Shown: positions 1-13,732 of the stretch, piece after piece
Position numbering within the stretch: position 1 is the stretch's first letter
Layout of the letters: every line of letters starts with the position of its first letter
DNA from: Chlamydiota bacterium
GTDB taxonomy: Bacteria; Auribacterota; JACPWU01
Reading direction: 5' to 3'
Length of the DNA stretch: 13,732 bases
NCBI GenBank assembly: GCA_016196885.1
Contig: JACPWU010000030.1
Span: forward strand, 1-13,732
The notes under the pieces: model-generated
Told to the model about the DNA's origin: nothing
The model's database searches: none
The model's input: the letters and a program-made list of their open reading frames with translations, nothing else
Position numbers and translations under genes: made by a program

Positions 1-10
1 AATCACCCTT

Positions 11-83
11 GTAGTCGCCCCATTTATGGGGCGGTCTATGACATTGGGGCATTGGGCATTGCCCGATAAATCGGGCGACTACA
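11..83 (-). repeat. Composite palindromic repeat, copy 1. It is inverted relative to the other copies: H2 hairpin, then H1 hairpin.
   Basis: GTAGTCGCCCCATTTATGGGGCG (11-33) and GCCCGATAAATCGGGCGACTACA (61-83) are the reverse complements of the H2 and H1 modules seen in the other six loci. The outer ends GTAGTCGCC / GGCGACTAC are mutually inverted. A degenerate terminal-IR-like AGTCATCATGAGTCAT follows at 84-99. Confidence 0.8.
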
Positions 84-141
84 AGTCATCATGAGTCATT
101 GTATAAGAAAGAGTAAAGACTATTTTCAGATGAAATGCGGG

Positions 142-1425: not shown

Positions 1426-1494
1426 AGTCTTATCGTCGTTCGTTGTTTGTCGTTTGTTTTTACGAAATACGAATGACAAACGACGAACGACTCA

Positions 1495-1704
1495 TTAAGC
1501 CCTAGGATGTGTTCCAATAAAATCTCTCATAAGGCCATATTCCCACATGGTCTCGACGCTGGCGACAGCGGCCCGCAATTCTACCGCAATCAATGGAATG
1601 CCTGCCAGAGAAATAATGATATCGGCGTTAATCACCAGTCCTTTGTCCAAAACCCGATCCAATAAATCTACGAGCGTCGCTCGACCTTGACGTGTGGGTT
1701 CCAT
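1495..1704 (-). CDS. GvpA-family gas vesicle protein (GvpJ/M/S-like minor paralogue)
   Basis: Core TLVDLLDRVLDKGLVINADIIISLAGIPLIAVELRAAVASVET matches the GvpA/J/M fold signature. ATG at 1704 is preceded by GGAGCGGAG-CAACAG. The upstream in-frame ATG at 1722 (75 aa) has no SD and lies in an AT-rich spacer, so the start is 1704 or 1722. Confidence 0.85.
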   Translation of the reverse strand: MEPTRQGRATLVDLLDRVLDKGLVINADIIISLAGIPLIAVELRAAVASVETMWEYGLMRDFIGTHPRA

Positions 1705-1776
1705 CTGTTGCTCCGCTCCCATTTATAATTAAAAATTAAGGAAAAGTTTATTTATTTTTAATTGATTCATTTGCCC

Positions 1777-2547
1777 TCAGGCAAATGAATAGGGTGGCCA
1801 AGGCCCTGTGAAACGAACGTCAAAACCTTGGATTTTCCCGATCTTTTCCAGTTCTCTCCCGAGAAGCACCACTTCGTCTTTCTCTTGCAGGCAGGAGAGA
1901 TTCATGATCATTTGTTTGGGTGGATTCTCTCGTCTGACTTTTTCGACATGGATTTCTTCAACACAATTGCGGATGCGCTGATAAAAATCCTTAAAATAGA
2001 CATTGGCCGCTTCTTCCAGTCGCTTTTTAATGATTTCAGCAAGTTTTCGTTCCAAAAGATAAGCGACCCCTTTGGGTTTGGACTGGATTTCCTTCTCCAG
2101 ATCCTGAATTTCTTTGTCATTGTGTCTAATTTTGGGAAGAACGATCGTAGGATCCCATATCACCTGTACACCATATTCCGCTTTACTTTTTAAACGCATC
2201 AATTTTCCACGAAGCTCTTCAGATTCTCTTTCCATCCAACCTTTAAGATTTTCACCCGCGGTCTTTCCGTCCATTGGCCGAATCACCATTCCAAAACTAA
2301 ATGGAAGAACAGTCTCATAACGCTCCCAGGCAATATCCACCACACTTTGATGAATCAAGAGCCCATCTGCAAGGACCTTTTGATCTTCAGATTGAATGGA
2401 CTTGGCCTCGCATTCCTCAACAACTGCAATCAGGCCTCGATGCAAAAGGGCCATGACAGGTTGTCCCCCAAGACCCCGAAGTTCCAGAGGTTCTTCCTGA
2501 TTCCCTTGGGCGAGACAATAGATATAAAGACCTTTATCGGTCATCAT
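1777..2547 (-). CDS. GvpF/GvpL family gas vesicle protein (paralogue 4)
   Basis: N-terminus GLYIYCLAQG..., LPFSFGMV, and C-terminal FDVRFTGPWPPYSFA are typical of GvpF/L. The track start at 2559 is a TTG that lies inside the RBS. ATG at 2547 follows GGAGGGAAAA. Confidence 0.85.
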   Translation of the reverse strand: MMTDKGLYIYCLAQGNQEEPLELRGLGGQPVMALLHRGLIAVVEECEAKSIQSEDQKVLADGLLIHQSVVDIAWERYETVLPFSFGMVIRPMDGKTAGENLKGWMERESEELRGKLMRLKSKAEYGVQVIWDPTIVLPKIRHNDKEIQDLEKEIQSKPKGVAYLLERKLAEIIKKRLEEAANVYFKDFYQRIRNCVEEIHVEKVRRENPPKQMIMNLSCLQEKDEVVLLGRELEKIGKIQGFDVRFTGPWPPYSFA

Positions 2548-2565
2548 TTTTCCCTCCAAATCAGA

Positions 2566-2635
2566 TCACTGTGCACGGCCCCATGAATGGGCGGCTACAT
2601 AATGGACGACACCTTTGAGTCAAGTGCATATGCCT
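2566..2635 (+). repeat. Composite palindromic repeat, copy 2. Right half only: H2 hairpin plus right terminal IR.
   Basis: GCCCCATGAATGGGCGGCTACA (2578-2599), then AATGGACGACACCTTTG, then AGTCAAGTGCATATGCCT (2618-2635). It fills the gvpK / gvpF-L gap and overlaps the last codons of gvpK. Confidence 0.8.
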
Positions 2636-2958
2636 TTTTCCTTATTCGTTTGGCGAGATGGAGCAATGCCATAAGGATCCGTTAAGCCTTGAACCATTGA
2701 ATCCACCCAATCATCTAATCCTTCCCGAACAGAACGAACAGCCTCCGTGACCCCCTGCTCTTCTTTCAAATGCTCAATCGCCTTATCCAACTCCATGAGG
2801 GTCACTCCAAGCCGATTGATTTCGTCTTCCGTAAGACTTCCCCCTTCCATTCTTTTAAGGGCTTGAATCCTCAAGGTGTCTCGAATCACCTCCACAATGG
2901 CCAAAACCAGGCCGAAGAGACCCTGTTTTAAATCTTTATCGTTCATTTCAAGTTTCAT
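2620..2958 (-). CDS. gvpK: Gas vesicle protein GvpK
   Basis: GLFGLVLAIVEVIRDTLRIQALKRMEGGSLTEDEINRLGVTLMELDKAIEHLKEE matches the conserved GvpK core. ATG start at 2958. The last four codons and the TGA stop lie inside repeat copy 2. Confidence 0.85.
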   Translation of the reverse strand: MKLEMNDKDLKQGLFGLVLAIVEVIRDTLRIQALKRMEGGSLTEDEINRLGVTLMELDKAIEHLKEEQGVTEAVRSVREGLDDWVDSMVQGLTDPYGIAPSRQTNKEKGICT

Positions 2959-2970
2959 GATGAGGTTGAC

Positions 2971-3153
2971 TTACCTCCCTTTCTTTCCAAACCTTCGATT
3001 CATTTCCTCTCGAATTTTTTTTATTCGACCCCCAAATATTTTGCTATTCTGGGCTTTTTGAAAGAAGGAACCAAAACCCGGAATCACCTTGCCAACCTTC
3101 TTCAAAATTTCATCCGCGACATCTTCTTTGTCTTTCTTATTCTCTTCAGACAT
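2971..3153 (-). CDS. Hypothetical small basic protein (60 aa) in the gvp operon
   Basis: ATG at 3153 is preceded by GGAGG with a 5-nt spacer. The track start at 3225 is a TTG whose extension would read through the left arm of repeat copy 3. The product MSEENKKDKEDV...PGFGSFFQK...GKKGR is charged with a Gly/Phe patch. I recognise no family. Confidence 0.5.
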   Translation of the reverse strand: MSEENKKDKEDVADEILKKVGKVIPGFGSFFQKAQNSKIFGGRIKKIREEMNRRFGKKGR

Positions 3154-3187
3154 GAATACCTCCTTTTTCAGCCTATGTGTTCCTATA

Positions 3188-3334
3188 AGGCTATGCAGTT
3201 GACTCAAGTACCTTTGGTCCGTCAAGTGTAGCCGCCCGATTTATCGGGCAAATCCATGCAAGGGGCAAGGCGCATTGCCCCATGAATGGGGCGACTACAA
3301 ATGAACGACATCTTTAAGTCAAGTGCATATGCCT
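3188..3334 (+). repeat. Composite palindromic repeat, copy 3 (full element, 147 bp)
   Basis: Left IR AGGCTATGCAGTTGACT (3188-3204). H1 TGTAGCCGCCCGATTTATCGGGC (3227-3249). Spacer AAATCCATGCAAGGGGCAAGGCGCATT. H2 GCCCCATGAATGGGGCGACTACA (3277-3299). Right IR AGTCAAGTGCATATGCCT (3317-3334). Confidence 0.85.
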
Positions 3335-3356
3335 ATATTCCTAACCTCCGACACTT

Positions 3357-3587
3357 CTATACTTTTTGTTCTGGAACCGGATGAGCTACCCTCATATCCG
3401 AGGGAAAGGCCAAACCCCATTTTGCCGCTGTTTCAAACGAGGCCAAGGCGGCCCGAATCTTAATGGAAAGAAGTTCCACATCGCAAAGTAAAATCACAAT
3501 ATCCGCGTTGATCACAAGCCCCTTATCGAGGATGCGCTCCACCACATCAGCCAATGAGTCTCCCTTTGTCGCGTGAGTGAATGGCAT
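3357..3587 (-). CDS. GvpA-family gas vesicle protein (GvpJ/M/S-like minor paralogue)
   Basis: SLADVVERILDKGLVINADIVILLCDVELLSIKIRAALASFET matches the GvpA-family core. ATG at 3587 immediately follows the TAA of the upstream gene (GAGGAGGCATAAATG), which suggests translational coupling. Confidence 0.85.
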   Translation of the reverse strand: MPFTHATKGDSLADVVERILDKGLVINADIVILLCDVELLSIKIRAALASFETAAKWGLAFPSDMRVAHPVPEQKV

Positions 3588-3839
3588 TTATGCCTCCTCA
3601 GGTCCAAAACCGGTGACATTAAACCCTTCATCCAGCGAAATCACATAACGGTTTTTATCAAAAATGGTCGGGTGACCCAATTTTTTCAGGTACTCGTTTT
3701 CTTCGGTCACTTCAATCGTTCCTTCCCATCCCATATCCGACTTCGCCAATTTCAAAACACGAATGGAGGCCGGATCCTTACCCAGCTCTTCCTGAACGAA
3801 TCCCGTGACCTTTACCTTCGCCTCATGAATATCAGACAT
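3588..3839 (-). CDS. gvpO: GvpO/GvpR-like gas vesicle protein
   Basis: Small acidic protein. MGWEGTIEVTEENEY...RYVISLDEGFNVTGF resembles the GvpO-family core (GW-x-V-x-VEV..., ...Y-x-V-x-LD). RBS AAGGAGGG lies 4 nt upstream of the ATG at 3839. Assigned from memory of the family signature. Confidence 0.6.
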   Translation of the reverse strand: MSDIHEAKVKVTGFVQEELGKDPASIRVLKLAKSDMGWEGTIEVTEENEYLKKLGHPTIFDKNRYVISLDEGFNVTGFGPEEA

Positions 3840-3854
3840 GAAACCCTCCTTCTC

Positions 3855-4112
3855 TTACAATTCTTCATCATTTGACTCTTCCCCCTCTTCTTCGACGGGT
3901 TCCTGACTCCTTTTGTCTATCTCATCCAGAATCCCCAAAATCTCCTTTTCCTTTAAATTATATTCTTCCTCCCCTATTTCACCCATATCCAATTTTGATT
4001 GGAGCAAAAGAAGACGCTCCATCACTTTCTCTCGGCTGCCGTATAATTCATCCTCGGCCATATCCTTAATCTTCTTGCCAAGCCAAATCGCCAAATCATC
4101 AAAGAAAAACAT
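3855..4112 (-). CDS. gvpG: Gas vesicle protein GvpG
   Basis: MFFFDDLAIWLGKKIKDMAEDELY...LLLLQSKLDMGEIGEEEYNLKEKEIL is the typical GvpG pattern (hydrophobic N-terminus, ELY, GEI-x-EEEY), followed by an acidic tail. Confidence 0.85.
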   Translation of the reverse strand: MFFFDDLAIWLGKKIKDMAEDELYGSREKVMERLLLLQSKLDMGEIGEEEYNLKEKEILGILDEIDKRSQEPVEEEGEESNDEEL

Positions 4113-4116
4113 GATT

Positions 4117-4926
4117 TTAAGACCTTTCGATCAGTTCCGCCTTCGACTGGAATTTTCCGCCTTCCTCCTCCAACTGAATGACAATCTCAACAAAGTTAAA
4201 GGGCGGAATAGGGCCCACATACTTAAACTGAATCTGGGAACCGTACCTGCCTTCTAGGTTGTTCACGACCTCATCAAAAGAGGCCTGTTTTTCATCCTCT
4301 ACAAGGAATGCAACATTCATAATATTGACATCCCCCAAAACATTTTGTTTTTTATGTTGAACAGCCCAAGGGGCAAGTTCATGGATCAGCGTTTCAGCCA
4401 TTTGAATGTTCTTCTCCTCCAAGGCCTCTTTCACCACATGCCCCACATCAATCAGAGCGGTGTGCCTTTCCTGTAAAGCCATTTTCATAATCTTCTCTTT
4501 AGCGGCAATCACCTTTTCGTTTTCCTGACTTAATTTTGAGAAAACCTCCTCCAGATTTTTCCACCTCGCCCTGAGGCCCAGCTCACTCTTACCTTGAATC
4601 TTTGCAAAGGTCTCCTGAAACTCCCTCACCTTCTCCTGACGCTTTAAAACCTGACGGACAATCTGATCCTTCGTCTCAGCCAGGGTGCAAAATTTCACGG
4701 GGAGCACCGGCTGAATTTGCATCACCTTTTCATTGACCAACTGATGAGCCATTAAAAAATCACGCGTCAGGTGATATTTCTTCATGGGCTCTTCTGAGAC
4801 CACAGCCGCAAAATCCCCATCGCTTACAACCTCAATCGCACTCGTGCCGTGAATCCCCTGAGCTTCAATCTTCAGAGGCGCTTTATTTTCAATCACGCAA
4901 TAGACCCAAAATCCCATCTTTTCCAT
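4117..4926 (-). CDS. GvpF/GvpL family gas vesicle protein (paralogue 3)
   Basis: MEKMGFWVYCVIEN..., LPVKFCTL, and C-terminal IQFKYVGPIPPFNFV. The track start at 4950 is a GTG. ATG at 4926 is preceded by AAGGAG with an 8-nt spacer. Confidence 0.85.
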   Translation of the reverse strand: MEKMGFWVYCVIENKAPLKIEAQGIHGTSAIEVVSDGDFAAVVSEEPMKKYHLTRDFLMAHQLVNEKVMQIQPVLPVKFCTLAETKDQIVRQVLKRQEKVREFQETFAKIQGKSELGLRARWKNLEEVFSKLSQENEKVIAAKEKIMKMALQERHTALIDVGHVVKEALEEKNIQMAETLIHELAPWAVQHKKQNVLGDVNIMNVAFLVEDEKQASFDEVVNNLEGRYGSQIQFKYVGPIPPFNFVEIVIQLEEEGGKFQSKAELIERS

Positions 4927-4950
4927 AACATCAGCTCCTTCATTAACCAC

Positions 4951-5058
4951 TGCCCCATAAATGAGGCGACTACATCACGATTCACTACCTGCCCCATGAA
5001 TGGGGCGACTACAATGGCCTGCTACTTGTAGTCGCCCGATTTATCGGGCAATCCATGC
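4951..5058 (+). repeat. Composite palindromic repeat, copy 4 (rearranged order H2, H2, H1)
   Basis: GCCCCATAAATGAGGCGACTACA (4952-4974), GCCCCATGAATGGGGCGACTACA (4991-5013), TGTAGTCGCCCGATTTATCGGGC (5027-5049), followed by AATCCATGC as in the other copies. There are no terminal IRs. Confidence 0.8.
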
Positions 5059-5065
5059 TACGCAG

Positions 5066-5812
5066 CTATTCATTCCAATGTAGTTGCAGGGTTACAAAAC
5101 TAAAGGGGGCCATGGGCCCCACCGATTTGACGTCCAGCCTGTCCCCAAATTTCTCAGCCAATTTTTCAGCGGATTGATCAAATTCCTTGAGCCAATCCTT
5201 ATCAATTAAAAAGGCTTCATGGATGACAACCTCATCGGCCCCAGACTCCATCGTTTTAGAGCCCTTTGCCAATTTTTTAAACGGCACGAGATAGCCTTCA
5301 CCCTCTGCCGCCTTTTTTTTCTCCAACGCAGCCGCTACCAGTTCCCCCGCGTGAATGAGGTCTCTTTGAGTTTGAGGGGGTTTAGCGGATTTCAAGTCTC
5401 GAATCTTTCGATTCTCCTGGGCAATTTCTTGATAAATTTTCTTCATGTCTTTCCAACGAACCTTGATGTCCATTTCAACTTTTCCATCCATATCTCTCAA
5501 AAGATCCGTCAACTCCTTCGAATTCCTTTCCAAAAATGAAATAATTTCGTCTGAGGTATCGGCCACCGTGCAGAAACGCATCGGAAGAATATTATATAAC
5601 TCCATCACCTTCTCGATCACCTTCATGTGGGCGGTCATATTTTCTCTGGAAAGGACGTAATGATCCATCGAGGCATTGCTCACCACGGCCGCTAGGCCCT
5701 CAGAACCAAGGGTCATCACCTCGTCCGATTGCCCCCCAATCCCAATGGGGCCAAAATTCTCAGCCCCATTGCTGGAAATAATCCCGTAAATATATTTTCC
5801 CACATGCTTCAT
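5066..5812 (-). CDS. GvpF/GvpL family gas vesicle protein (paralogue 2)
   Basis: MKHVGKYIYGIISSNGAENFGPIG..., LPMRFCTV, and C-terminal LDVKSVGPMAPFSFV. ATG at 5812. Confidence 0.85.
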   Translation of the reverse strand: MKHVGKYIYGIISSNGAENFGPIGIGGQSDEVMTLGSEGLAAVVSNASMDHYVLSRENMTAHMKVIEKVMELYNILPMRFCTVADTSDEIISFLERNSKELTDLLRDMDGKVEMDIKVRWKDMKKIYQEIAQENRKIRDLKSAKPPQTQRDLIHAGELVAAALEKKKAAEGEGYLVPFKKLAKGSKTMESGADEVVIHEAFLIDKDWLKEFDQSAEKLAEKFGDRLDVKSVGPMAPFSFVTLQLHWNE

Positions 5813-5815
5813 AAC

Positions 5816-6820
5816 CTAACCCTTTCCATTGATTTGAAACAAGTCCACCTTCCAGGGCTGACGACCTCCCTGACAGTAATCTAGCAGCAGGTCATACGCC
5901 TCGTGAATTTTTTGGAATTCCTGATCGTCCAATTCGGGATGAATGTCCGGATGGCATTTCCGTGATTTCTCTTTATAGGCGTGTTTCACCGTTTCCAAAT
6001 TTTGATCGCCTTCCAAACCTAACACCTCCTTCGCCCGGCGGATCTCTCGCTCCTCAAATTCCTTGACCAAAATCATAGAAAAACTATAAAGCGGCAGAGG
6101 TCCAATGCAACGAAAATTAAATTTTCCCCCACATATCCGATCCAGATGCTCGACGGTCTTAAAAAACGAATCCTCCTGGCCATTTTTGAGCAAAAAGGAG
6201 GCGTTTAAAACCATGTCGTCATTCATCGTGTCATGTAAGGCGCTCTCTTGACTCACTTTTTTTAAGGAAAACAGAATCTCGTCAGCCCATTGATTCGCAT
6301 AGTCCTTTAATTTTGCCGCTAGGCTCATCCCCAAGGCAATCTTTTCATCCTTTTCTCTCTCAGGCGAAAATGTTTGAATCGCTTTTATCCGACTTTCAAT
6401 TTCTGGATCGCCTTCAGCCATTCCTTTTAGAACCTCCCTGGAATCCCAAGTGACCACGACATCCGTCTCGAAACAATCCTTCATCTTTGAAATCCACTCC
6501 TCAAGACGCCTCTCGTTTTGTAAAAGGACCGCACGTACTTCTTCCTGATCCCTTAAGACAGTCCCAAATTTGCACGGGAGAATAAATTGGCTCTTCATAA
6601 TCATCTCCAGCGTCTCCTGATGCGTTAATAAGGTCTTGACCAATCTTTCTTTGCTCAAAAGTCCGAAATCTTCCTCAGGCGCGGGTCCAATCACGGCGGC
6701 AATATTTCGACTGGGCAGAGCTTCAACCTTTCCCCTTCCAAAGTCCGCTGTTTCAAAACCGATTGCGCCAAAGTCTTTTAACGCGTTCGATTCAACAATC
6801 CCGTAAAGATAAGAACGCAT
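5816..6820 (-). CDS. GvpF/GvpL-family domain fused to a C-terminal DnaJ-type J-domain
   Basis: Residues 1-250 look like GvpF/L (SYLYGIVESNALKDFGAIG, LPCKFGTV, FNFRCIGPLPLYSF). Residues ~258-316 read AKEVLGLEGDQNLETVKHAYKEKSRKCHPDIHPELDDQEFQKIHEAYDLLLDY, a J-domain with HPD encoded at 5945-5953 (CAT CCG GAC on the minus strand). Confidence 0.85.
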   Translation of the reverse strand: MRSYLYGIVESNALKDFGAIGFETADFGRGKVEALPSRNIAAVIGPAPEEDFGLLSKERLVKTLLTHQETLEMIMKSQFILPCKFGTVLRDQEEVRAVLLQNERRLEEWISKMKDCFETDVVVTWDSREVLKGMAEGDPEIESRIKAIQTFSPEREKDEKIALGMSLAAKLKDYANQWADEILFSLKKVSQESALHDTMNDDMVLNASFLLKNGQEDSFFKTVEHLDRICGGKFNFRCIGPLPLYSFSMILVKEFEEREIRRAKEVLGLEGDQNLETVKHAYKEKSRKCHPDIHPELDDQEFQKIHEAYDLLLDYCQGGRQPWKVDLFQINGKG

Positions 6821-6831
6821 ATCTTAACCTC

Positions 6832-9012
6832 TCACTTTTTAGCCTTCCGAGCGATTTGAATCGCCTCTTGGAAATGTTCTTTCCTCACAACAAATTTCTC
6901 CACCAATCCATTGGACTTATCTTGATGCTCTCCAATAAATTCCCTAATCGCCAAGGTCACCGCCTGCCTGCAAAGGGCTGCAATATCGGCCCCGCTGGCC
7001 CCTTCTGTTTCTCGAGCCAGCGCTTCTTTGTCCACCTTTTTTTCGACTGGGGTTCCCTTCAAATGAATCTGAAATATCCCCTCTCGTGCTTTAAGATCCG
7101 GAGGACCCAGCATAATAATATGATCAAATCGGCCCGGCCGGATCAGGGCCGGGTCAATCAAATCCACTCGATTGGTCGCACCCAAGATAATCACGCCTCG
7201 AAGCTCCTCCGTCCCATCTAACTCTGTTAAAAATTGACTAAGGGTCCGACCCATAACCCCGGAATCACCATCGCCTGAGCCCCTTCTCGGAGCCATGGAA
7301 TCCATCTCATCAAAAAATAGAACACAGGGAGCCGCGGACCTTGCCTTTTTAAAAATCTCCCGAACGCCTTTTTCAGTCTCCCCCACATATTTCGAAACCA
7401 ATTCAGGGCCTTTAATCGAAATGAAATTGACCTCGGACTCCGTTGCCAACGCCTTTGCGAGTAAAGTTTTCCCCATTCCTGGAGCACCTATCAGAAGAAC
7501 CCCTTTATTGGGTTTGAGATTTGCCTTCTCGAAAACCTTCGCATAGTGAAGGGGCCACTCTGCTCCCTCGATGAGCAATTTTTTCACAGCTTCAAGTCCC
7601 CCAATATCCGACCAGCGCACATGGGGAGTCTCTAGTGAGACCTCACGAATGGCGGAGGGCTCCACCTCATTCAATGCCTGTGTAAAATGTTCTTGTGTCA
7701 CTTCCAGGGACTCGATCACTTCAAGGGGAAGGTCTTCGATGCGCATTCCTCTTTTTTCCAAAACCTGTCTCAGGCAGCTCATCGCGGCCTCCCTGGCCAA
7801 TGCCTCAACATCAGCCCCCACATAGCCATGGGTGATATCCGCTATCCTCTCCAAACTCACATCTTCGGCCAGGGGCATTCCACGCGTATGGATTTCAAGT
7901 ATTTTAAGCCGTCCATTGCGATCCGGAATTCCAATCGTAATCTCGCGATCAAACCGGCCGGGCCGCCTCAAAGCAGGATCCAAAAGATCCGGCATATTGG
8001 TCGCCCCAATCACAATCAGCTCGCCCCGCGATTTTAATCCATCCAAAAGAGACAAAAGCGTGGCGACAATTCTTTTCTCTACCTCCCCCTGGACATTCGC
8101 CCTCTTGGGGGCCACTGAATCAATTTCATCAATGAAGATAATGGCTGGGGCATGGAGCCTCGCCTCTTCAAAAATGGATCGTAAATGACTTTCGGATTCG
8201 CCGTAAAATTTATGCACGATCTCAGGGCCATTGATCGTGTAGAAATTGGCCTCCGATTCATGAGCCACCGCGCGGGCAATCAAGGTCTTTCCTGTCCCTG
8301 GAGGTCCATAGAGAAGAACCCCCTTCGGGGGATCAATTCCCAATCGCTCAAACACCTCAGGATGTTTAAGGGGCAGTTCCACCATCTCCCGAATTCTCTG
8401 AATCTCCCTGGTCAAGCCACCAATGTCCTCGTAAGAAACACCGGGACGAGTCTTTTCTTCACCCTTTACAGCCTCCCCTTCAATTTTGATTTGCGTTGAA
8501 GATGTGATGAGAAGAGGACCCTCGGGCGAAGTATTCACCACTTCAAAATCTCGAGTCCTCGATCCAAAAAGAGTCGCGCGGACCCGATCCCCTTTAAGGA
8601 CAGGCAACCCCTCCAGGAGACGGCCCACATAAGGATCAGACGAAGGCAGGGCACCTTGTTTTGAGGAACTCAGCGTTGTTTTGAGCCACAAGGTTCTCGC
8701 GGGCTCAGCAGTTGTAGCAAAAACTAAAACCTTCCCATCTAAGCCAATTTTTGCATTTTCGCGAGTGACTCCATCAATCTGAATGTAATGCTTCCCTCGA
8801 TACTCCTCGTAGGTCGGAGCCAGCTTCGCCACCGTCTTATGCTTGCCTTCAATAAATATAATATCCCCGACATGGCAGCCCAATTTTTCCATATCGGACG
8901 GATCCAAGCGGGCAATCCCACGCCCTACATCCCTCACCAAAGCTTCTGCAACACGGAAAGTGAGGGAATCAGACTTAGAATCAGCTTGTTCCTTTTTTAC
9001 AGTACTGGCCAT
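6832..9012 (-). CDS. Cdc48/VAT/p97-type AAA+ ATPase (N domain plus D1 and D2 rings)
   Basis: N domain: RVAEALVRDVGRGIARLDPSDMEKLGCHVGDIIFIEGK. D1: Walker A GPPGTGKT (8284-8307), Walker B IIFIDEID, pore loop KFYGESE, PALRRPGRFDREI. D2: Walker A GAPGMGKT (7465-7488), Walker B VLFFDEMD, pore loop SKYVGETE, PALIRPGRFDHII. RBS GAGGTG lies 5 nt before the ATG at 9012. Confidence 0.92.
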   Translation of the reverse strand: MASTVKKEQADSKSDSLTFRVAEALVRDVGRGIARLDPSDMEKLGCHVGDIIFIEGKHKTVAKLAPTYEEYRGKHYIQIDGVTRENAKIGLDGKVLVFATTAEPARTLWLKTTLSSSKQGALPSSDPYVGRLLEGLPVLKGDRVRATLFGSRTRDFEVVNTSPEGPLLITSSTQIKIEGEAVKGEEKTRPGVSYEDIGGLTREIQRIREMVELPLKHPEVFERLGIDPPKGVLLYGPPGTGKTLIARAVAHESEANFYTINGPEIVHKFYGESESHLRSIFEEARLHAPAIIFIDEIDSVAPKRANVQGEVEKRIVATLLSLLDGLKSRGELIVIGATNMPDLLDPALRRPGRFDREITIGIPDRNGRLKILEIHTRGMPLAEDVSLERIADITHGYVGADVEALAREAAMSCLRQVLEKRGMRIEDLPLEVIESLEVTQEHFTQALNEVEPSAIREVSLETPHVRWSDIGGLEAVKKLLIEGAEWPLHYAKVFEKANLKPNKGVLLIGAPGMGKTLLAKALATESEVNFISIKGPELVSKYVGETEKGVREIFKKARSAAPCVLFFDEMDSMAPRRGSGDGDSGVMGRTLSQFLTELDGTEELRGVIILGATNRVDLIDPALIRPGRFDHIIMLGPPDLKAREGIFQIHLKGTPVEKKVDKEALARETEGASGADIAALCRQAVTLAIREFIGEHQDKSNGLVEKFVVRKEHFQEAIQIARKAKK

Positions 9013-9108
9013 CTTTCACCTCGTTTCCAAAGCCCAATCGTACGCTCGAAACCCCAACACCCAAGGGAACCGCGCAAAAGCCGGGGTTTGGAAAAGAATA
9101 TATTCATT

Positions 9109-9227
9109 AGCATATGTATTTGACTCTAAAGCGTAGCCGCCCGATTCATCGGGCAATCCCCCATGCACGGCCCCATGAATGGGGCGACTACAAATGGACG
9201 ACATTTTTAGGTCAAATACATGAGCCT
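9109..9227 (+). repeat. Composite palindromic repeat, copy 5 (full element, 119 bp)
   Basis: Left IR AGCATATGTATTTGACT (9109-9125). H1 GCGTAGCCGCCCGATTCATCGGGC (9131-9154). H2 GCCCCATGAATGGGGCGACTACA (9170-9192). Right IR AGGTCAAATACATGAGCCT (9209-9227). Confidence 0.85.
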
Positions 9228-9233
9228 GTAGAT

Positions 9234-9788
9234 CTATTTTTCTTTCTTCCTGAGCTTCAACTCCAACATCCCATTTTTATAACTGACTTGGGCACCCGCT
9301 TCCTCCACGGGTGTTTTAAGCAAAATCTCTTTGCTGTACTTACGCTTTCCCGTCGTGGATAAATTCACCACATCCCCATGAATCTCGTAATGAATCTCAC
9401 TCTCGCTTACCCCTGGCAGCTCGGAAACAATTTGCACTGTAGTACTATCCTCAAAAACATCCACAATGGGCTCTCGGGTCTCTTCCACGACCGGACCTTT
9501 GGGGGTTTTTTTAATATTGCCAAAGGCCTCAACGACAGGTTTTGTCTTTCCACCGGCCCCTGCCATGGTCCGAACGGTGAAGCCAAACACCCCTTTCATA
9601 TCCTTCTGGCCAGGCACTGTAAATTCACCCTCCTTTTGAATCACGCCTCCCTCTTCCTTAATCTTGTCAGCAAGTTCAATTAAATTCCCCAATCCTTGAA
9701 ACAACCCGCCAAAAAGGCCCCCCGTCTTAAACTCAAAGGGAAATTTAACCTCTTCACCCGACTCATCCTTTTTCTTTTCTTTTTTCAT
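9234..9788 (-). CDS. Hsp20/alpha-crystallin family small heat-shock protein
   Basis: Alpha-crystallin domain: VDVFEDSTTVQIVSELPGVSESEIHYEIHGDVVNLS...AQVSYKNGMLELKLRKK (the A-x-x-x-NG-x-L-x-x-x-L-x-K signature). N-terminal Lys/Glu-rich and Gly/Phe-rich extension (GGLFGGLFQGLG). The track start at 9797 is a GTG. ATG at 9788 follows GGAGGTGGAGGAT. Confidence 0.85.
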   Translation of the reverse strand: MKKEKKKDESGEEVKFPFEFKTGGLFGGLFQGLGNLIELADKIKEEGGVIQKEGEFTVPGQKDMKGVFGFTVRTMAGAGGKTKPVVEAFGNIKKTPKGPVVEETREPIVDVFEDSTTVQIVSELPGVSESEIHYEIHGDVVNLSTTGKRKYSKEILLKTPVEEAGAQVSYKNGMLELKLRKKEK

Positions 9789-9830
9789 ATCCTCCACCTC
9801 CAGTCTCTCTCTTTCAGTGAATTAAAATTT

Positions 9831-10132
9831 AGGCATACGTACTTGCCCCACGCATCCTCGTAGCGTAGCCGCCCGATTTATCCCCCCACCCAATCCAGCT
9901 GTTATCTTTAGCACGTTCGTAAGCTTATGACCCGTGCATTGATCGCTAAACAATCCCGCCACCTTCGATAGATTGGGTGGGGGGATGAATCGGGCAAATC
10001 CATGCAAGGGGCACGGCCCCATAAATGGGGCGACTACATCCGTCAAGCGTAGTCGCCCGATTTATCGGGCAACATCCATGCACGGCCCCATAAATGGGGC
10101 GACTACAAATGGACTCAGTGCGTAAGCCCATA
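9831..10132 (+). repeat. Composite palindromic repeat, copy 6. Two tandem H1-H2 units inside one pair of degenerate terminal IRs; the first H1 is expanded into a 25-bp-arm hairpin.
   Basis: Left IR AGGCATACGTACTTGCCC (9831-9848). Expanded H1 arms GCCCGATTTATCCCCCCACCCAATC (9871-9895) and GATTGGGTGGGGGGATGAATCGGGC (9971-9995). H2 (10015-10038). H1 GCGTAGTCGCCCGATTTATCGGGC (10047-10070). H2 (10085-10107). Degenerate right IR TCAGTGCGTAAGCC (~10115-10128). Confidence 0.8.
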
Positions 10133-10135
10133 AAA

Positions 10136-10468
10136 TTAATACGCCAGACTCATCTTCTTCACCCGACTGCCACTTTCTCGCAATTCTTTTTGCTCAGCTT
10201 TTTTGTGAGGCCGCCTGCCTGAAAGCTTTCGATACTGACTCTCAGTCCCCCGAATATCCGCTTCAATCCCTTTCATAATCTCCTTGGCTTCGTGCAACTG
10301 ATGCGTCAAGGTGTTGATTTTGCTGAGCAAACTCTGACGCCGGACCGTGAGAATATAAAGCCGATTGACCTGTTGAACCGTTCCGGTATTCTTAAGAGTA
10401 ACGGTCCGGATATCTGAAGAGCCTCGACTGGTTGAAGATCTCCTCAATAATTTCATTTGCACTGGCAC
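10136..10468 (-). CDS. Hypothetical coiled-coil protein directly downstream of gvpN (position of gvpV in Serratia/Anabaena-type clusters)
   Basis: Intact ORF 18 nt downstream of gvpN, with AAGGAGGG upstream. The start is ambiguous: GTG 10468, GTG 10462 or ATG 10456. It has a basic N-terminus and a helical segment LLSKINTLTHQLHEAKEIMKGIEADIRG. The GvpV assignment rests on synteny only, not on recognised sequence. Confidence 0.45.
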   Translation of the reverse strand: MPVQMKLLRRSSTSRGSSDIRTVTLKNTGTVQQVNRLYILTVRRQSLLSKINTLTHQLHEAKEIMKGIEADIRGTESQYRKLSGRRPHKKAEQKELRESGSRVKKMSLAY

Positions 10469-10486
10469 GGCCCTCCTTTTTTTCTT

Positions 10487-11440
10487 TTAAGGGTCTCTTT
10501 TCGGTTTCTTCCCATTCAAACCAAATTGATGAATGGCTCTCTCCACCACTTCCTTGACCTTGGCTGAAGTTGTCTTACTTCCGATTCTCGAAGTTTCTGA
10601 ACAAAGAACATCCAGACAAATCTGTTTAAAAAGAGAATGGTCCGCACCCAGACAAACCCCTTTTCCATAATCCTGAACGGTTTTGGCAATCATGATACAG
10701 CCCCGAATGGTGGGCGCAAATTCATACTGGCCATGCTCCCTCAAATAGCGAACGATCTTCACAATCTTTAAGGCGACTTCCCTGGAAAGTCCTGATCTTC
10801 TTGCAGTAATCGCGCATTCTGTCTCCTCATCAAAGGGCTCCAGATCCAGTGTCACCATCCGATCCCGAAGCGCATCTTGAGAGCGATGAACGCCGGCGTA
10901 TTCCTCCGGATTCGAAGTAAAAATAGCCCGAAAATTGGGATGAACCTTGATACAACTCTCTCCATCGTTTCTACCCCCTCCGGGAAGATCCAGAATTCCC
11001 TCCTGAAGAACCGAAAGAAGAATATTATTGGCCTCAGGCCTTGAACGGGTAAATTCGTCATAAATCAGCGTATAACCATTTTCCACAGCGACCGTCAAAC
11101 GGTTATCCACCCATCGCTTAGAAGAGTCTTCTTCAACCTTCAAAACAGAAGCAATAAAATTATCTCGAAGTTTGCTCACATGATAACCCGTCTGAGCCCC
11201 CACCAATTCGTCTGTGGTCAGTTGTTCATCTCCATGGATCATAATGACGGGCCTTTCTAAGAGCTCGGCAACACGCAGGGCCGATGTCGTTTTCCCTGTC
11301 CCCGAAATCCCTCTAAAATGGACAGGAAAACCCGCATTCAAATAATGGAGGGCCCTCCCTTGAATTCCTTTAACGAAGGGCGTCTCTACAAAATCCGCCC
11401 CCGCCTTCGGTTGTAAAATTGTAATCTCACTGGTTTCCAT
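10487..11440 (-). CDS. gvpN: Gas vesicle AAA+ ATPase GvpN
   Basis: FVETPFVKGIQGRALHYLNAGFPVHFRGISGTGKTT (Walker A encoded at 11288-11311), Walker B TLIYDEFTRS, and FRAIFTSNPEEYAGVHRSQDALRDR. Length (317 aa) and motifs are typical of GvpN. Confidence 0.9.
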   Translation of the reverse strand: METSEITILQPKAGADFVETPFVKGIQGRALHYLNAGFPVHFRGISGTGKTTSALRVAELLERPVIMIHGDEQLTTDELVGAQTGYHVSKLRDNFIASVLKVEEDSSKRWVDNRLTVAVENGYTLIYDEFTRSRPEANNILLSVLQEGILDLPGGGRNDGESCIKVHPNFRAIFTSNPEEYAGVHRSQDALRDRMVTLDLEPFDEETECAITARRSGLSREVALKIVKIVRYLREHGQYEFAPTIRGCIMIAKTVQDYGKGVCLGADHSLFKQICLDVLCSETSRIGSKTTSAKVKEVVERAIHQFGLNGKKPKRDP

Positions 11441-11515
11441 TTTAAACCTTTAGGGGAGATCAGGCCCTCCGACATCGCGTCTGGGGGCGTGATCTTCCGC
11501 GAAATTTTTTGATCC

Positions 11516-11917
11516 TTAATGCTTCTTGGCTGTCTTTGGCGTAGCCTTCTGGGCCATATTTCTCACACTCGTATCGAAGTGCCGCCTCTTCTCGGCCATC
11601 TCCTTTTCAACCTTCTGAAAGGCCTGATGACCCGCTTTGCATTCCTGATGAAACGCCTTGCTCTCCTTATGGAATCCCTGACACAACTTACCCACACTGT
11701 CGGTCAGGTTACCCACGAAAGTTCCTAAATCCGCATGCAACCCTCTTGCCATTGCCTTGCGATCTTTCCTCGTATGATCTAGAAACTTATGGGCATCATT
11801 CGTTATTCGATTAACCTCGGCGACATTATGCCCAAGGAAATTAATACGGTCATTGAACGAAGAGAGGATGCTTCCTCCCAGATTGGCCATACCTGTTGCA
11901 AATCCCGTGAATGCCAT
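11516..11917 (-). CDS. Hypothetical alpha-helical His/Lys-rich protein between the gvpC-position ORF and gvpN
   Basis: AAGGAG lies 9 nt upstream of the ATG at 11917; the ATG at 11926 abuts the SD with no spacer. It contains three consecutive heptads, GFHKESK / AFHQECK / AGHQAFQ. I recognise no family. Confidence 0.5.
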   Translation of the reverse strand: MAFTGFATGMANLGGSILSSFNDRINFLGHNVAEVNRITNDAHKFLDHTRKDRKAMARGLHADLGTFVGNLTDSVGKLCQGFHKESKAFHQECKAGHQAFQKVEKEMAEKRRHFDTSVRNMAQKATPKTAKKH

Positions 11918-11938
11918 GATATTCATCTCCTTTCCTAA

Positions 11939-12562
11939 TCAGGATAAACTTCGTATCCTGTCACCATCTCTTTCCCTGATGTCTTCTCGCCTTCCGCCGG
12001 TACAAGTCAAATATTCATCGGCCAAAGCGGCGGTCTCGAGCCTAAGCTTAGAACCTAAATCATCAAGGGTCTTTTTGAATTCCCTTAAAGTAAGCTCATC
12101 CTTTTTCTGTAAAAGATACTGCATCTTCTCCCCAATCAGGGCTTGTTCTTCTTGAAAACACCTTAAACTAACCCTCGTATCGGCAATGGAACCCTGAATC
12201 CCCTTCTCCAAAGAAGGGACATCTAAAAAGATCCCCTCCTCGACCCCTCTCTTCAACTGAGCCGCCAACTCTTTTTGCCTCTTTAGAAAAGAATGCAAAG
12301 TCAGCCTAATCTCTTTCTCTCTAGCCCGCTGATAAGCTAAAAGAGGCATCGTGAGCACATCAAAATCCTTTTTCCTAAACGACTCAACTTTGGACAATGT
12401 TTCCCTTAAATTTTCCTGAACCATTTGATTGGCAACACGACATTGGTCGAGCATTTCCATACTTTTTTCGATAATCTCCTGTACGGCACAAATGTTCTCA
12501 TCGTAACCCCTGATCGCGTCTGCTGTAATCCTCTTAATCTCCTCCAACTCTGGTGCTCTCAT
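11939..12562 (-). CDS. Hypothetical alpha-helical protein immediately downstream of gvpA (gvpC position)
   Basis: The track start at 12616 is a GTG. ATG at 12562 is preceded by GGAGGAG with a 5-nt spacer (207 aa). The protein is charged and helical, with a weak recurring motif: ESFRKKD (60-66), HSFLKRQ (90-96), REFKKTL (160-166). LTLHSF and LTLREF lie 70 residues apart. Confidence 0.5.
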   Translation of the reverse strand: MRAPELEEIKRITADAIRGYDENICAVQEIIEKSMEMLDQCRVANQMVQENLRETLSKVESFRKKDFDVLTMPLLAYQRAREKEIRLTLHSFLKRQKELAAQLKRGVEEGIFLDVPSLEKGIQGSIADTRVSLRCFQEEQALIGEKMQYLLQKKDELTLREFKKTLDDLGSKLRLETAALADEYLTCTGGRREDIRERDGDRIRSLS

Positions 12563-12665
12563 GAAAACTCCTCCACTTTTCTTTGGAAAAGCTTGGTTTG
12601 GCAAAGTCAAGCTCACCTGAAATCATCCGCTAAACTCGTGTCTGAGGTCGGCTCGACAAACCATT

Positions 12666-12684
12666 TCCCTCGTCTCCCGAGGGA
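12666..12684 (-). terminator. Putative stem-loop attenuator just downstream of gvpA
   Basis: On the sense strand, TCCCTCG-GGAGA-CGAGGGA (7-bp GC-rich stem, 5-nt loop) begins 10 nt after the gvpA stop. It is followed by AAATGGTTTG, so there is no clean U-tract. A partial terminator after gvpA is a common arrangement, but this one is weak. Confidence 0.3.
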
Positions 12685-12694
12685 TTCCTTTTCC

Positions 12695-12910
12695 CTACGC
12701 AGGCTGAGCCGCCGTCTGTGTAAGACCGATCGCTTCAGCATACTTAAGATAGGTCTCGACACCCGCGCATACGACACGGGCTTCCACGCTCAGGAACTCA
12801 ATTCCCACCAACGAGACCCTGGCCCATGCATCGATCACGATTCCCTTATCCAGAATCCGATCGACAACCTCTGCTAATGAAGAACTCGCCATTGATTTTT
12901 GAACTGCCAT
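12695..12910 (-). CDS. gvpA: Major gas vesicle structural protein GvpA
   Basis: [71 protein letters not shown] is nearly canonical GvpA over its whole 71-aa length. ATG at 12910 is preceded by AAGGAAGGTG. The track start at 12958 is a TTG extension that would overlap the predicted transcription start. Confidence 0.95.
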
Positions 12911-12961
12911 TTGACACCTTCCTTTCTTCTTTTGACCTCTTCCAAGCGTCGGAAGCAATAA

Positions 12962-12977
12962 AGCAATATGCGTACCA
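12962..12977 (-). promoter_or_regulatory. Sigma-54 (RpoN) -24/-12 promoter upstream of gvpA
   Basis: The minus strand reads TGGTACG-CATA-TTGCT against the consensus TGGCACG-N4-TTGCW, matching 11 of 12 specified positions with exact GG/GC spacing. The GC of the -12 element is 53 nt upstream of the gvpA ATG, which implies a leader of about 40 nt. Confidence 0.6.
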
Positions 12978-13043: not shown

Positions 13044-13162
13044 AGGCATATGCACTTGACTTTTTGTAGTCGCCCGATTTATCGGGCTATCAACGGATTG
13101 CCCCATGAATGGGGCGACTACACTTCACGGATCAAGGTACTTAAAGTCAAGTGCATGTGCCT
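13044..13162 (+). repeat. Composite palindromic repeat, copy 7 (full element, 119 bp; the cleanest copy)
   Basis: Left IR AGGCATATGCACTTGACT (13044-13061). H1 TGTAGTCGCCCGATTTATCGGGC (13065-13087). Spacer TATCAACGGATT. H2 GCCCCATGAATGGGGCGACTACA (13100-13122). Right IR AGTCAAGTGCATGTGCCT (13145-13162). Confidence 0.9.
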
Positions 13163-13300
13163 TATAAGCAAAACAGGGTTTTCAGAGATTTTAGAACTGG
13201 AAAAATCGGCAAAGGATTCCCTCATTCAGGAATTAAATCCTGATTTCTGGGTATAAAAGCGTAGGGGTATTTTGTGGGTTTAGTTCACGCGGGATTTAGA

Positions 13301-13732
13301 TTATTGTTGACCCTCCCACATGACTTTAAGCAGAAAGATCGTATCTTTTCTCAAATTGGCTTTAGCCCACACCTTCTGTTTTTCATCCAGCAGTTCACCC
13401 ATGCCGGAGAGGATGTGCCTGTCCCCCATTTTTTCCAAAAGGTCGATACATTTCTGCAAAAAATTCTTGAATGACATGCCAACTCTGGTTTCGACAATCC
13501 CTTTGTTGATGGGCCAATTTTTCTCCAAAAAATGCCAAGTGTCATAAATGTCGCGATTCGTTTTACCCATTCGTTCAACCATCGCCACCAGCTTGTGCGC
13601 CACCATGTCCTCCCGTGTCATAACCTTCATGGAAATACCCAGATAGGCCTTCACTTCATACCTTGATCCGAATTCCCTTCGGTTGATTTCCACCTTGATA
13701 TTCTGAGCACCCAGGACTTTATTATCATAGGA
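13301..13732 (-). CDS. AbiEii/AbiGii-family nucleotidyltransferase toxin, C-terminal part (5' end lies beyond the window)
   Basis: The frame stays open to the window edge: ...SYDNKVLGAQNIKVEINRREFGS.... EDMVAHKLVAMVERMGKTNRDIYDTWHFL resembles the conserved AbiEii (type IV TA nucleotidyltransferase) region. The M at 13693 in the track is an internal GTG (Val). Confidence 0.55.
   Translation of the reverse strand, partial: SYDNKVLGAQNIKVEINRREFGSRYEVKAYLGISMKVMTREDMVAHKLVAMVERMGKTNRDIYDTWHFLEKNWPINKGIVETRVGMSFKNFLQKCIDLLEKMGDRHILSGMGELLDEKQKVWAKANLRKDTIFLLKVMWEGQQ

Follow-up and report, generated by a model that had tools for sequence, protein, structure and literature searches.

In a 13,732-nucleotide stretch of DNA from a bacterium labelled Chlamydiota (contig JACPWU010000030.1, hereafter the window), we found that a gas vesicle protein (gvp) cluster contains three adjacent genes that add up to an unusual set of protein-handling functions. 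They encode a small heat-shock protein (sHsp), an AAA+ ATPase of the CDC48/VAT family (hereafter Cdc48), and a paralogue of GvpL/GvpF fused to a J domain (hereafter the fusion, GvpL/F-J). Judging from the sequences of these genes and of their neighbourhoods, the block is an integral module of a type of gvp operon that is widespread in bacteria, has long been conserved there, and is very probably dedicated functionally to gas vesicles. With less assurance, we favor the view that it provides client-specific proteostasis for the extremely hydrophobic shell proteins of the GvpA family, by the mechanism worded below. The initial annotation of the window had read the block as a dedicated chaperone system for the folding, delivery or disassembly of these proteins. 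The dedication is in agreement with the conservation of gene order, the codon usage, the HPD loop of the J domain, and the DnaK/Hsp70 genes of relatives, whereas a role in folding, delivery or disassembly is what we infer from them.

Conservation of the module across gas vesicle clusters

The three genes lie where the initial annotation had placed them, co-oriented on the minus strand, between a gvpA-x-x-gvpN-x segment and a gvpF-gvpF-gvpG-x-gvpJ-x-gvpK-gvpF-gvpA-like segment (Table 1). The order gvpA, two open reading frames, gvpN, another open reading frame, sHsp, Cdc48, GvpL/F-J, gvpF, gvpF and gvpG recurs beyond the window, including in a sister locus (L001) from a second metagenome-assembled genome (MAG) labelled Chlamydiae. 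There is also a more distant version with a Get3/ArsA-like ATPase, whose fusion is about 27% identical to that of the window. Co-occurrence in other gvp clusters had been proposed as a check of the initial reading, and the comparison, once made, found the three genes together and in the same order in gvp clusters from lineages that carry at least seven different labels. By their coordinates, neighboring genes of several relatives (L084, L085/L086, L087 and L088) touch end to end or share a few bases, which is typical of a co-translated operon. The fusion gene is found 3' of Cdc48 in every locus with a readable upstream neighbor. The sHsp-Cdc48 pair is also present in the gvp clusters L089 and L013, where the next GvpF has no J domain, and the gvp cluster of a plasmid of Methylosinus sp. 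C49 (L091) has, in this order, gvpH, a hypothetical gene and a gene annotated as 'CDC48 family AAA ATPase'. The block had been presented as going beyond the usual arrangement with a single sHsp or with GvpN. It does exceed what is found in the model clusters that have been studied. Among environmental bacteria, however, such a block is common and not exceptional.

Some relatives carry further chaperone genes. The cluster of L092 contains a DnaK-family gene between gvpF and gvpK, whose product of 659 residues scores 889.6 and 872.7 bits, above both DnaK cutoffs. L087 and L088 each have a DnaK-family gene right after their last gvp-related gene, with the same orientation; the L088 protein is divergent, since it scores below the TIGR02350 cutoff and is 45-47% identical to the L092 and L087 copies. 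A small protein with a DnaJ-type CXXCXGXG zinc finger is encoded in L003, L088 and L092. Related gvp clusters also encode single- or double-domain ATPases of the Get3/TRC40/ArsA family.

The sHsp/GvpH genes and the AAA+ protein GvpN are already familiar parts of gvp clusters. The nearest published account, a survey from 2010, described ArsA homologues and Hsp20 in the gvp clusters of Polaribacter irgensii, Pelodictyon luteolum and Geobacter uraniireducens, and is silent on Cdc48, J domains and Hsp70 (PMC2963123). In the full-text literature outside subscription journals, no paper was found that describes Cdc48, a J domain or Hsp70 as part of gvp clusters. The individual proteins already have names in public annotations ('CDC48 family AAA ATPase', 'GvpL/GvpF family', 'J domain-containing protein'). 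Hence, the sequences are known, but the system appears to be unstudied: a gvp cluster with an extended and very probably dedicated set of chaperones.

The sHsp and Cdc48 genes are associated in other contexts as well. At least eight archaeal loci without gvp genes (L006-L010, L019, L025 and L032) have a homologue of the sHsp of the window beside a Cdc48 gene and co-oriented with it. The two are directly adjacent in most, whereas the sHsp of L007 is about 2 kb upstream. The loci are labelled Methanomethylophilaceae, Methanoperedens, Methanomassiliicoccales, Methanoculleus, Bathyarchaeia, Thaumarchaeota and Nitrosopumilaceae. Because both genes are paired in these loci, and because the sHsp of the window scores best on an archaeal Hsp20 model, the data suggest that gvp clusters acquired an hsp20-cdc48 pair that already existed. 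The archaeal pair resembles ours in that homologues of both genes are adjacent and co-oriented, but neither gvp genes nor a J domain are linked to it. The bacterial and archaeal pairs may plausibly share an origin. In a neighbor-joining tree of 37 Cdc48 sequences, most gvp-linked proteins group in a bacterial clade apart from archaea, with a bootstrap of only 18-35%; two Synergistaceae proteins not linked to gvp genes fall inside this clade, and the Methylosinus and Peptococcaceae proteins fall outside. Given such a weak and mixed tree, we claim neither that the gvp-linked proteins arose once nor that they descend from archaea.

These archaeal loci might be thought to indicate that the block is a general stress-chaperone cassette of the hsp20-cdc48 type, which is merely co-located or co-regulated with the gvp genes, for example under cold or starvation, and has the whole proteome as clients. 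An AAA+ ATPase belongs to the Phr regulon of Pyrococcus. The hsp20 gene of Pyrococcus is also under the control of this heat-shock regulator (PMC9133787). Yet, the J domain is fused to a Gvp protein that always follows Cdc48 in the contexts examined, and the position of the genes within the operon, abutting or overlapping, is kept across distant lineages. Furthermore, the Cdc48 of the window belongs to a bacterial group characterized by the signature HKFYGESE, which is present in 60 of its 120 best matches, and the genes of this group with a readable context are all in gvp clusters (8/8). Hitch-hiking of a stress cassette is thus clearly unlikely, and we retain the reading in which the module is dedicated to gas vesicles.

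The three proteins and their possible division of labor

The fusion protein has 334 residues. Residues 1 to about 250 make up the GvpL/GvpF part (Pfam GvpL_GvpF, PF06386; E = 3.7e-48, 165.1 bits for a cutoff of 23.6), and the J domain is C-terminal (Pfam DnaJ, PF00226, at residues 265-314; E = 4.6e-10, 39.9 bits for a cutoff of 27.8). In an AlphaFold (AF2) model built on 18 family members (predicted local distance difference test 91.6, predicted template modelling score 0.82), the helices of the J domain span residues 257-266, 275-289 and 299-317, and the HPD tripeptide (H290-P291-D292) is in the loop between helices II and III. Foldseek matched residues 1-250 of the model to crystal structures of GvpF (4qsg and 6l5d; E around 1e-13, target-normalised template modelling score of 0.64-0.74), and the C-terminus to the J domain of DnaJ bound to DnaK (5nro_B; root-mean-square deviation of 1.5 Å over 55 columns) and to many further J domains with probability 1.00. 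The HPD is at least 90% conserved in an alignment of 21 sequences, whose members are 27-89% identical to the fusion of the window. A profile search of 1.84 billion representatives showed that the full-length family comprises at least 150 clusters at 50% identity, and the HPD is kept in 141 of 150 family representatives among the matches listed. This conservation across the family indicates that the J domain is under selection. A beta-strand is predicted after helix III of the J domain (residues 323-328, window 5837-5854, consensus V-S-L-F-x-V-N-G) and is conserved in the closer family members. This strand may hold the J domain against the GvpF/L sheet or control how far the domain is exposed.

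Relative to characterized GvpF and GvpL proteins (PF06386; 4QSG from Microcystis, 6L5D from Anabaena), the fusion shares the fold, the Pfam match and the proximity of gvpF paralogues, but its identity to the GvpFs of solved structure is only 22-23%, and it has a J domain and a terminal beta-strand that the characterized proteins lack. Among systems of known function, it also comes close to the class C (type III) J-proteins. HscB, auxilin and DjlA are specialised J-proteins that direct Hsp70 to one client, as in the HscB-HscA-IscU and auxilin-Hsc70-clathrin systems. Like them, the fusion joins a J domain with an intact HPD to what would be a dedicated client-binding module, without the G/F region or the client-binding domains of DnaJ. 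As in the HscB-HscA pair, some of its relatives come with an Hsp70 encoded in the same cluster. It differs from them in that its putative targeting module is a gas vesicle protein. The addition of a J domain to a GvpF/L paralogue points to a client-specific targeting factor for Hsp70, similar to HscB or auxilin.

The sHsp-like protein has 184-187 residues, depending on whether it starts at the GTG at 9797 or at the ATG at 9788; the latter, which is the start called in the sister genome, is probable. Its match to Pfam HSP20 (PF00011; E = 0.007, 16.9 bits) is under the cutoff of 20.8. Since this was deemed insufficient for the assignment, we added NCBIfam models, structures and synteny. The closest model is that of archaeal Hsp20 (NF041800; E = 4.8e-35, 120.6 bits, below the cutoff of 140), and residues 102-185 align with PDB 4rzk_A ('Small heat shock protein hsp20 family'; E = 5e-13). 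A probable, divergent alpha-crystallin domain occupies residues ~102-186, after a conserved N-terminal region of about 100 residues. The protein has no match to Pfam GvpH (PF05455) at E ≤ 0.01, and it lacks the C-terminal I-X-I/V tail, as it ends (...GMLELKLRKKEK) right after the last strand of this domain. It is homologous to the annotated gvpH of plasmid pMSC49b of Methylosinus sp. C49 (tblastn E = 4e-6) and to an Hsp20 encoded in the gvp cluster of Octadecabacter arcticus, and its equivalent in L089 has a weak match to Pfam GvpH. Orthologues that are 42-93% identical occupy the same position in L001, L003 and L005. By these similarities, the protein is a divergent homologue of small heat-shock proteins. 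In this it resembles the GvpH of haloarchaea and the Hsp20 of bacterial gvp clusters, which are also sHsp-like proteins encoded inside the cluster (PMC2963123, PMC6107691), but it misses the thresholds of both Pfam GvpH and HSP20, is nearest to NF041800, and is consistently paired with Cdc48.

The Cdc48 protein (726 residues) scores 901.5 bits on TIGR01243 CDC48, for a cutoff of 802.65, and matches CDC48_N (80.4 bits), CDC48_2 (44.9 bits) and two copies each of AAA and AAA_lid_3 in Pfam. It thus has the full N-D1-D2 architecture. Walker A (G..G.GK[TS]) and Walker B (IIFIDEID and VLFFDEMD) are intact in both rings, and both pore loops are aromatic (KFYGESE in D1, KYVGETE in D2). The C-terminal HbYX motif, by which such ATPases dock to the 20S proteasome, is absent from the protein, which ends in ...ARKAKK. 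It is also absent from all 60 proteins with the HKFYGESE signature, against 6 occurrences in the 60 other top matches (mostly archaeal by source label). Our protein is 51-57% identical to archaeal homologues. It shares the N-D1-D2 architecture and a score above the TIGR01243 cutoff with archaeal Cdc48/VAT and with actinobacterial Cpa and Msm0858, and the aromatic pore loops in D1 and D2 with VAT. It differs from these proteins by its membership of the bacterial group without HbYX whose members, when their context can be read, are in gvp operons. A scan of contigs with the Cdc48 protein gave, among the matches listed, mostly archaeal or unrelated AAA loci, with gvp genes only in L004, L005, L013 and L045. 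It was dominated by generic AAA peptides such as IIFIDEID, and the close bacterial relatives were reached by another route.

Previous work provides a framework for how these proteins could act together. GvpF was proposed to chaperone GvpA by binding its hydrophobic part before handing it on, with a comparable role of GvpL for GvpA, GvpJ and GvpS (PMC11445434). Aggregation of GvpA is a proteotoxic stress in E. coli and is toxic when assembly factors are limiting (PMC12848028). The GvpH of haloarchaea prevents the aggregation of GvpM (PMC6107691), and clients bound to sHsps are recovered by Hsp70 and Hsp100 (PMC6834283). From this and from the features of the three proteins, we infer the clients of the module, the order in which its parts act and its effect on vesicles. 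The GvpF/L domain of the fusion would bind GvpA, GvpJ, subunits akin to them or the vesicle as it forms, just like GvpF and GvpL in the systems that have been studied. The J domain would then recruit an Hsp70/DnaK, either that of the host or, in some relatives, one encoded in the cluster, and trigger its ATPase through the HPD loop, so that Hsp70 captures the subunit or releases it in an insertion-competent state. The GvpH-like sHsp would keep surplus or unassembled subunits in a recoverable state. Finally, the Cdc48 hexamer would thread and unfold mis-assembled or aggregated subunits, and possibly those of a collapsed shell, for reuse. Such a role in unfolding and release fits Cdc48 because it has two aromatic pore loops and no proteasome-docking tail. 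Cdc48 would in this way take the place of ClpB in the network formed by sHsp, Hsp70 (DnaK/DnaJ) and Hsp100 (ClpB). The block has the equivalent parts, i.e., a holdase, a J-protein targeting Hsp70 and a ring-shaped threading ATPase, but its motor is Cdc48 instead of ClpB, its J-protein would be client-specific, and the cooperation of its parts is a proposal.

The main rival to this mechanism is that the module serves disassembly or recycling rather than assembly: Cdc48, the sHsp and Hsp70 would extract GvpA from collapsed or unwanted vesicles, thereby resetting buoyancy and reclaiming protein. Cdc48/VAT proteins are established segregases that pull subunits from stable assemblies; the aromatic residues in both pore loops fit full threading, and without an HbYX tail the product would be released, not degraded. 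A J domain on a lattice-binding protein also recalls the uncoating of clathrin by auxilin and Hsc70. On the other hand, the genes stand in the middle of a biogenesis operon, between gvpN and the gvpF paralogues, and our scans revealed no separate promoter, so that co-expression with the assembly genes is expected. We regard a role mainly in disassembly and recycling as a serious but rather unlikely possibility; the observations fit recycling as well as assembly, and the two roles are not mutually exclusive.

Several points weigh against client-specific proteostasis as the function of the module. All three members are known from sequence, and the fusion also from a predicted structure. The best-studied gvp clusters, those of Halobacterium, Anabaena, Bacillus megaterium and Serratia, produce vesicles and are not known to encode Cdc48 or a J domain, so that the module cannot be a general requirement. 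Nor do we know of any established direct link between Cdc48 and Hsp70, or between Cdc48 and an sHsp, in bacteria. The window itself has no Hsp70 gene, and also no DnaJ-type zinc-finger or Get3-like gene. Its J domain is assumed to use the DnaK of the host, a protein that is nearly universal in bacteria. The DnaK of L087 scores as a canonical housekeeping DnaK (1031.7 bits) and could be adjacent to the gvp genes by chance. Finally, since the sHsp-like protein is below both HSP20 cutoffs and lacks the I-X-I tail, it may not act as a classical oligomeric sHsp.

Repeats and the question of a recent insertion

The initial annotation had noted that the block is bounded by repeats, with another repeat between the Cdc48 and sHsp genes, and had regarded signs of a recent unrelated insertion as evidence against its reading. 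Repeats are indeed present near 4951-5058, 9109-9227 and 9831-10132, but they do not delimit the block. They belong to a single dispersed family of palindromes resembling repetitive extragenic palindromic (REP) elements, GTAGYCGCCCSATKNATSGGGC, which usually occur as inverted pairs. The window has 14 copies with at most two mismatches, where none is expected, spread over seven intergenic gaps, i.e., nearly every longer spacer. They account for the unusually long gaps between Cdc48 and sHsp (221 nucleotides) and between sHsp and orf110 (338 nucleotides). The left repeat is not at the edge of the block, from which it is separated by gvpF2. In L001, there are three exact copies in 21 kb (the window count allowed two mismatches), all in the spacer between gvpF2 and gvpF3 that is equivalent to 4951-5058 of the window. 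The family is thus not a specific border of the block. Instead, the element seems to have spread through the spacers after the block was already in place, and recently in the genome of the window. Its copies might influence how stable the mRNA is, or how strongly the genes of the operon are expressed relative to one another.

A recent foreign insertion, or a mobile cassette delimited by the flanking repeats, would be suggested by the repeats near the block (9855-10145 and 4937-5057) and by the G+C content of the Cdc48 gene (0.50), which is slightly above that of its neighbors. Yet the same repeats are found in seven intergenic sites, the left one is cut off by gvpF2, and L001 carries the block with none of its exact copies beside it. 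Synonymous-codon usage in the block is at a root-mean-square distance of 0.080 from that in the remaining gvp genes, compared with 0.082 ± 0.014 for random partitions, and G+C at third codon positions (GC3) is 0.50 in the block and 0.487 in the other gvp genes. Nucleotide identity to L001 is 88.7-89.4% for the block and 85-94% for neighboring gvp genes. The conservation of gene order across lineages also contradicts a recent arrival. Scans of the window for sigma-70 promoter and intrinsic-terminator consensus sequences gave counts near the shuffled expectation, with none convincing at the edges of the block, which we take only as absence of evidence for separate regulation. The signs of insertion that had been considered are thus not observed: codon usage and divergence match those of the gvp genes, and there is no significant block-specific promoter or terminator signal in these scans. 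A recent insertion is effectively excluded by these comparisons.

We also considered a foreign origin for the Cdc48 gene from its higher G+C, and rejected it: the first two codon positions, and not GC3, account for the excess, which thus reflects amino-acid composition. The divergence of the window from L001 is uneven along the locus. The flank with the AbiEii reading frame (window 13304-13732, L001 3001-3429) has 98% DNA identity, whereas WaaA (window 142-1479, L001 15249-16526) has only 63% protein identity, and the gvp genes have 85-94% DNA identity. This could result from different constraints or from recombination.

Cluster layout and implications for gas vesicle biology

All real genes of the window belong to a single gvp cluster on the minus strand, which is followed by the Kdo transferase gene waaA (Table 1). 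Five open reading frames (orf225, orf136, orf110, orf83 and orf84) are kept in sequence and position in L001 and L003, and L084, L085 and L087 have unannotated genes of similar size at these positions. They probably encode uncharacterised Gvp proteins, possibly similar to GvpC, GvpO or GvpR. The cluster adjoins lipopolysaccharide genes, waaA in the window and waaA, lpxK and a lipid A acyltransferase gene in L001. A complete gvp cluster is present in two MAGs labelled Chlamydiae, a label that is the source's own, and we found no report of gas vesicles in chlamydiae in the literature.

A sigma-54-type -24/-12 motif (TGGTAC-N5-TTGC; 12962-12977, minus strand) is found just 5' of gvpA and is identical in L001. 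Motifs of the form TGGCAC/TGGCAT-N5-TTGC were seen by eye 5' of gvpA in L087, L089 and L003. A sigma-54 activator is encoded upstream in L003, L087, L088, L089 and L092, most of which also encode a PAS histidine kinase. Across the window, motifs of this type are not above chance (7 versus 5.6 expected). At the other end of the cluster, an inverted repeat of 27 nucleotides with a 3-nucleotide loop (1435-1491, 85% complementary) directly follows the stop codon of the gvpA-like gene, overlaps the start of waaA, and could be a terminator or attenuator ending the gvp operon. Upstream of the cluster there is a truncated reading frame of 130 residues (13301-13693) for AbiEii, the nucleotidyltransferase of a type IV toxin-antitoxin system. 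Its counterpart in L001, at the corresponding place, has 233 residues.

Table 1. Coordinates of the features of the window, and related loci with their gene arrangement (positions in relatives are those of the locus named).
Feature or locus	Position	Strand	Evidence or remark
gvpA	12695-12910/12958	-	Pfam Gas_vesicle; first in transcription order
orf225	11939-12616	-	no significant Pfam/NCBIfam match
orf136	11516-11926	-	no significant Pfam/NCBIfam match
gvpN	10487-11440	-	TIGR02640 GvpN, 318.8 bits
orf110	10136-10468	-	no significant Pfam/NCBIfam match
sHsp-like gene (GvpH/archaeal-Hsp20 type)	9234-9788/9797	-	NF041800, PDB 4rzk, synteny
Cdc48 (CDC48/VAT-family AAA+ ATPase)	6832-9012	-	TIGR01243, Pfam
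GvpL/F-J fusion (GvpL/GvpF paralogue + J domain)	5816-6820	-	Pfam GvpL_GvpF + DnaJ
J-domain coding segment of the fusion	5870-6055	-	residues 256-317; HPD codons 5945-5953
gvpF2	5066-5812	-	Pfam
gvpF3	4117-4950	-	Pfam
gvpG	3855-4112	-	Pfam
orf83	3588-3839	-	no significant Pfam/NCBIfam match
gvpJ-like	3357-3587	-	Pfam
orf84	2971-3225	-	no significant Pfam/NCBIfam match
gvpK	2620-2958	-	Pfam
gvpF4	1777-2559	-	Pfam
gvpA-like	1495-1722	-	Pfam; last gvp gene in transcription order
waaA (Kdo transferase)	142-1479	-	3' of the gvp genes
Upstream part of the cluster, gvpA to orf110	10136-12958	-	order kept in L001, L003, L084, L085, L087
Downstream part of the cluster, gvpF2 to gvpA-like	1495-5812	-	Pfam matches and synteny
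REP-like repeat	8-84		intergenic
REP-like repeat, related copy	2573-2638		intergenic
REP-like repeat	3218-3337		intergenic
REP-like repeats, gvpF3-gvpF2 spacer	4937-5057		one gene outside the block; only site in common with the sister genome
REP-like repeat pair, cdc48-sHsp spacer	9123-9230		no copy of the motif in the L001 spacer
REP-like repeat cluster, sHsp-orf110 spacer	9855-10145		no copy of the motif in the L001 spacer
REP-like repeat	13056-13163		intergenic
L001, second Chlamydiae-labelled MAG, 50-kb contig (sister locus)			gene order of the window
L003, Candidatus Eisenbacteria MAG			gene order of the window
L084 and L087, two Deltaproteobacteria MAGs			gene order of the window
L085/L086, Gammaproteobacteria MAG			gene order of the window
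L088, Pseudomonadota MAG			gene order of the window; GvpL without recorded DnaJ Pfam match, HPD retained
L005, Chlorobiaceae MAG			distant version: sHsp, Get3/ArsA-like ATPase, Cdc48, GvpL-J
L004, Flavobacteriaceae MAG			distant version: sHsp, Get3/ArsA-like ATPase, Cdc48, GvpL-J
L093, abundant metagenomic lineage			distant version: sHsp, Get3/ArsA-like ATPase, Cdc48, GvpL-J
L092, encodes a protein identical to PI23P_02387 of cultured Polaribacter irgensii 23-P			distant version: sHsp, Get3/ArsA-like ATPase, Cdc48, GvpL-J
L092, zinc-finger, Get3-like and DnaK genes	4384-4695, 6853-7788, 15222-17201		genes of relatives
L088, protein-handling genes	7648-8013, 16150-18135, 20465-end		genes of relatives
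L003, protein-handling gene	5481-5849		gene of relative
L005, protein-handling gene	4313-5278		gene of relative

The main question in gas vesicle assembly is by what means the extremely hydrophobic GvpA stays soluble, reaches the shell and is inserted there, and current ideas on the roles of GvpF, GvpG and GvpN come from four model clusters (PMC11445434). A class of gvp clusters with the fusion, Cdc48 and an sHsp gives direct handles on the clients among Gvp proteins and on the step that spends energy. A richer version of the module, with its own Hsp70, is carried by P. irgensii 23-P, which is a cultured organism. The engineering of gas vesicles as acoustic reporters may also benefit, given the toxicity of GvpA aggregation to E. 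coli (PMC12848028).

More broadly, and only tentatively, many environmental bacteria may have an organelle-specific proteostasis machine. A J-protein with Hsp70, a GvpH-like sHsp and a ClpB-like Cdc48 independent of the proteasome, joined in some by a Get3-like ATPase and a DnaJ-type zinc-finger protein, would deliver GvpA to the shell and retrieve it from aggregates or collapsed vesicles. A defined role for a bacterial Cdc48 without a proteasome partner, as predicted from the missing HbYX motif, would follow. If true, this would be the first cellular role assigned to Cdc48 in bacteria labelled outside Actinobacteria, and would provide a route to the recycling of shell proteins.

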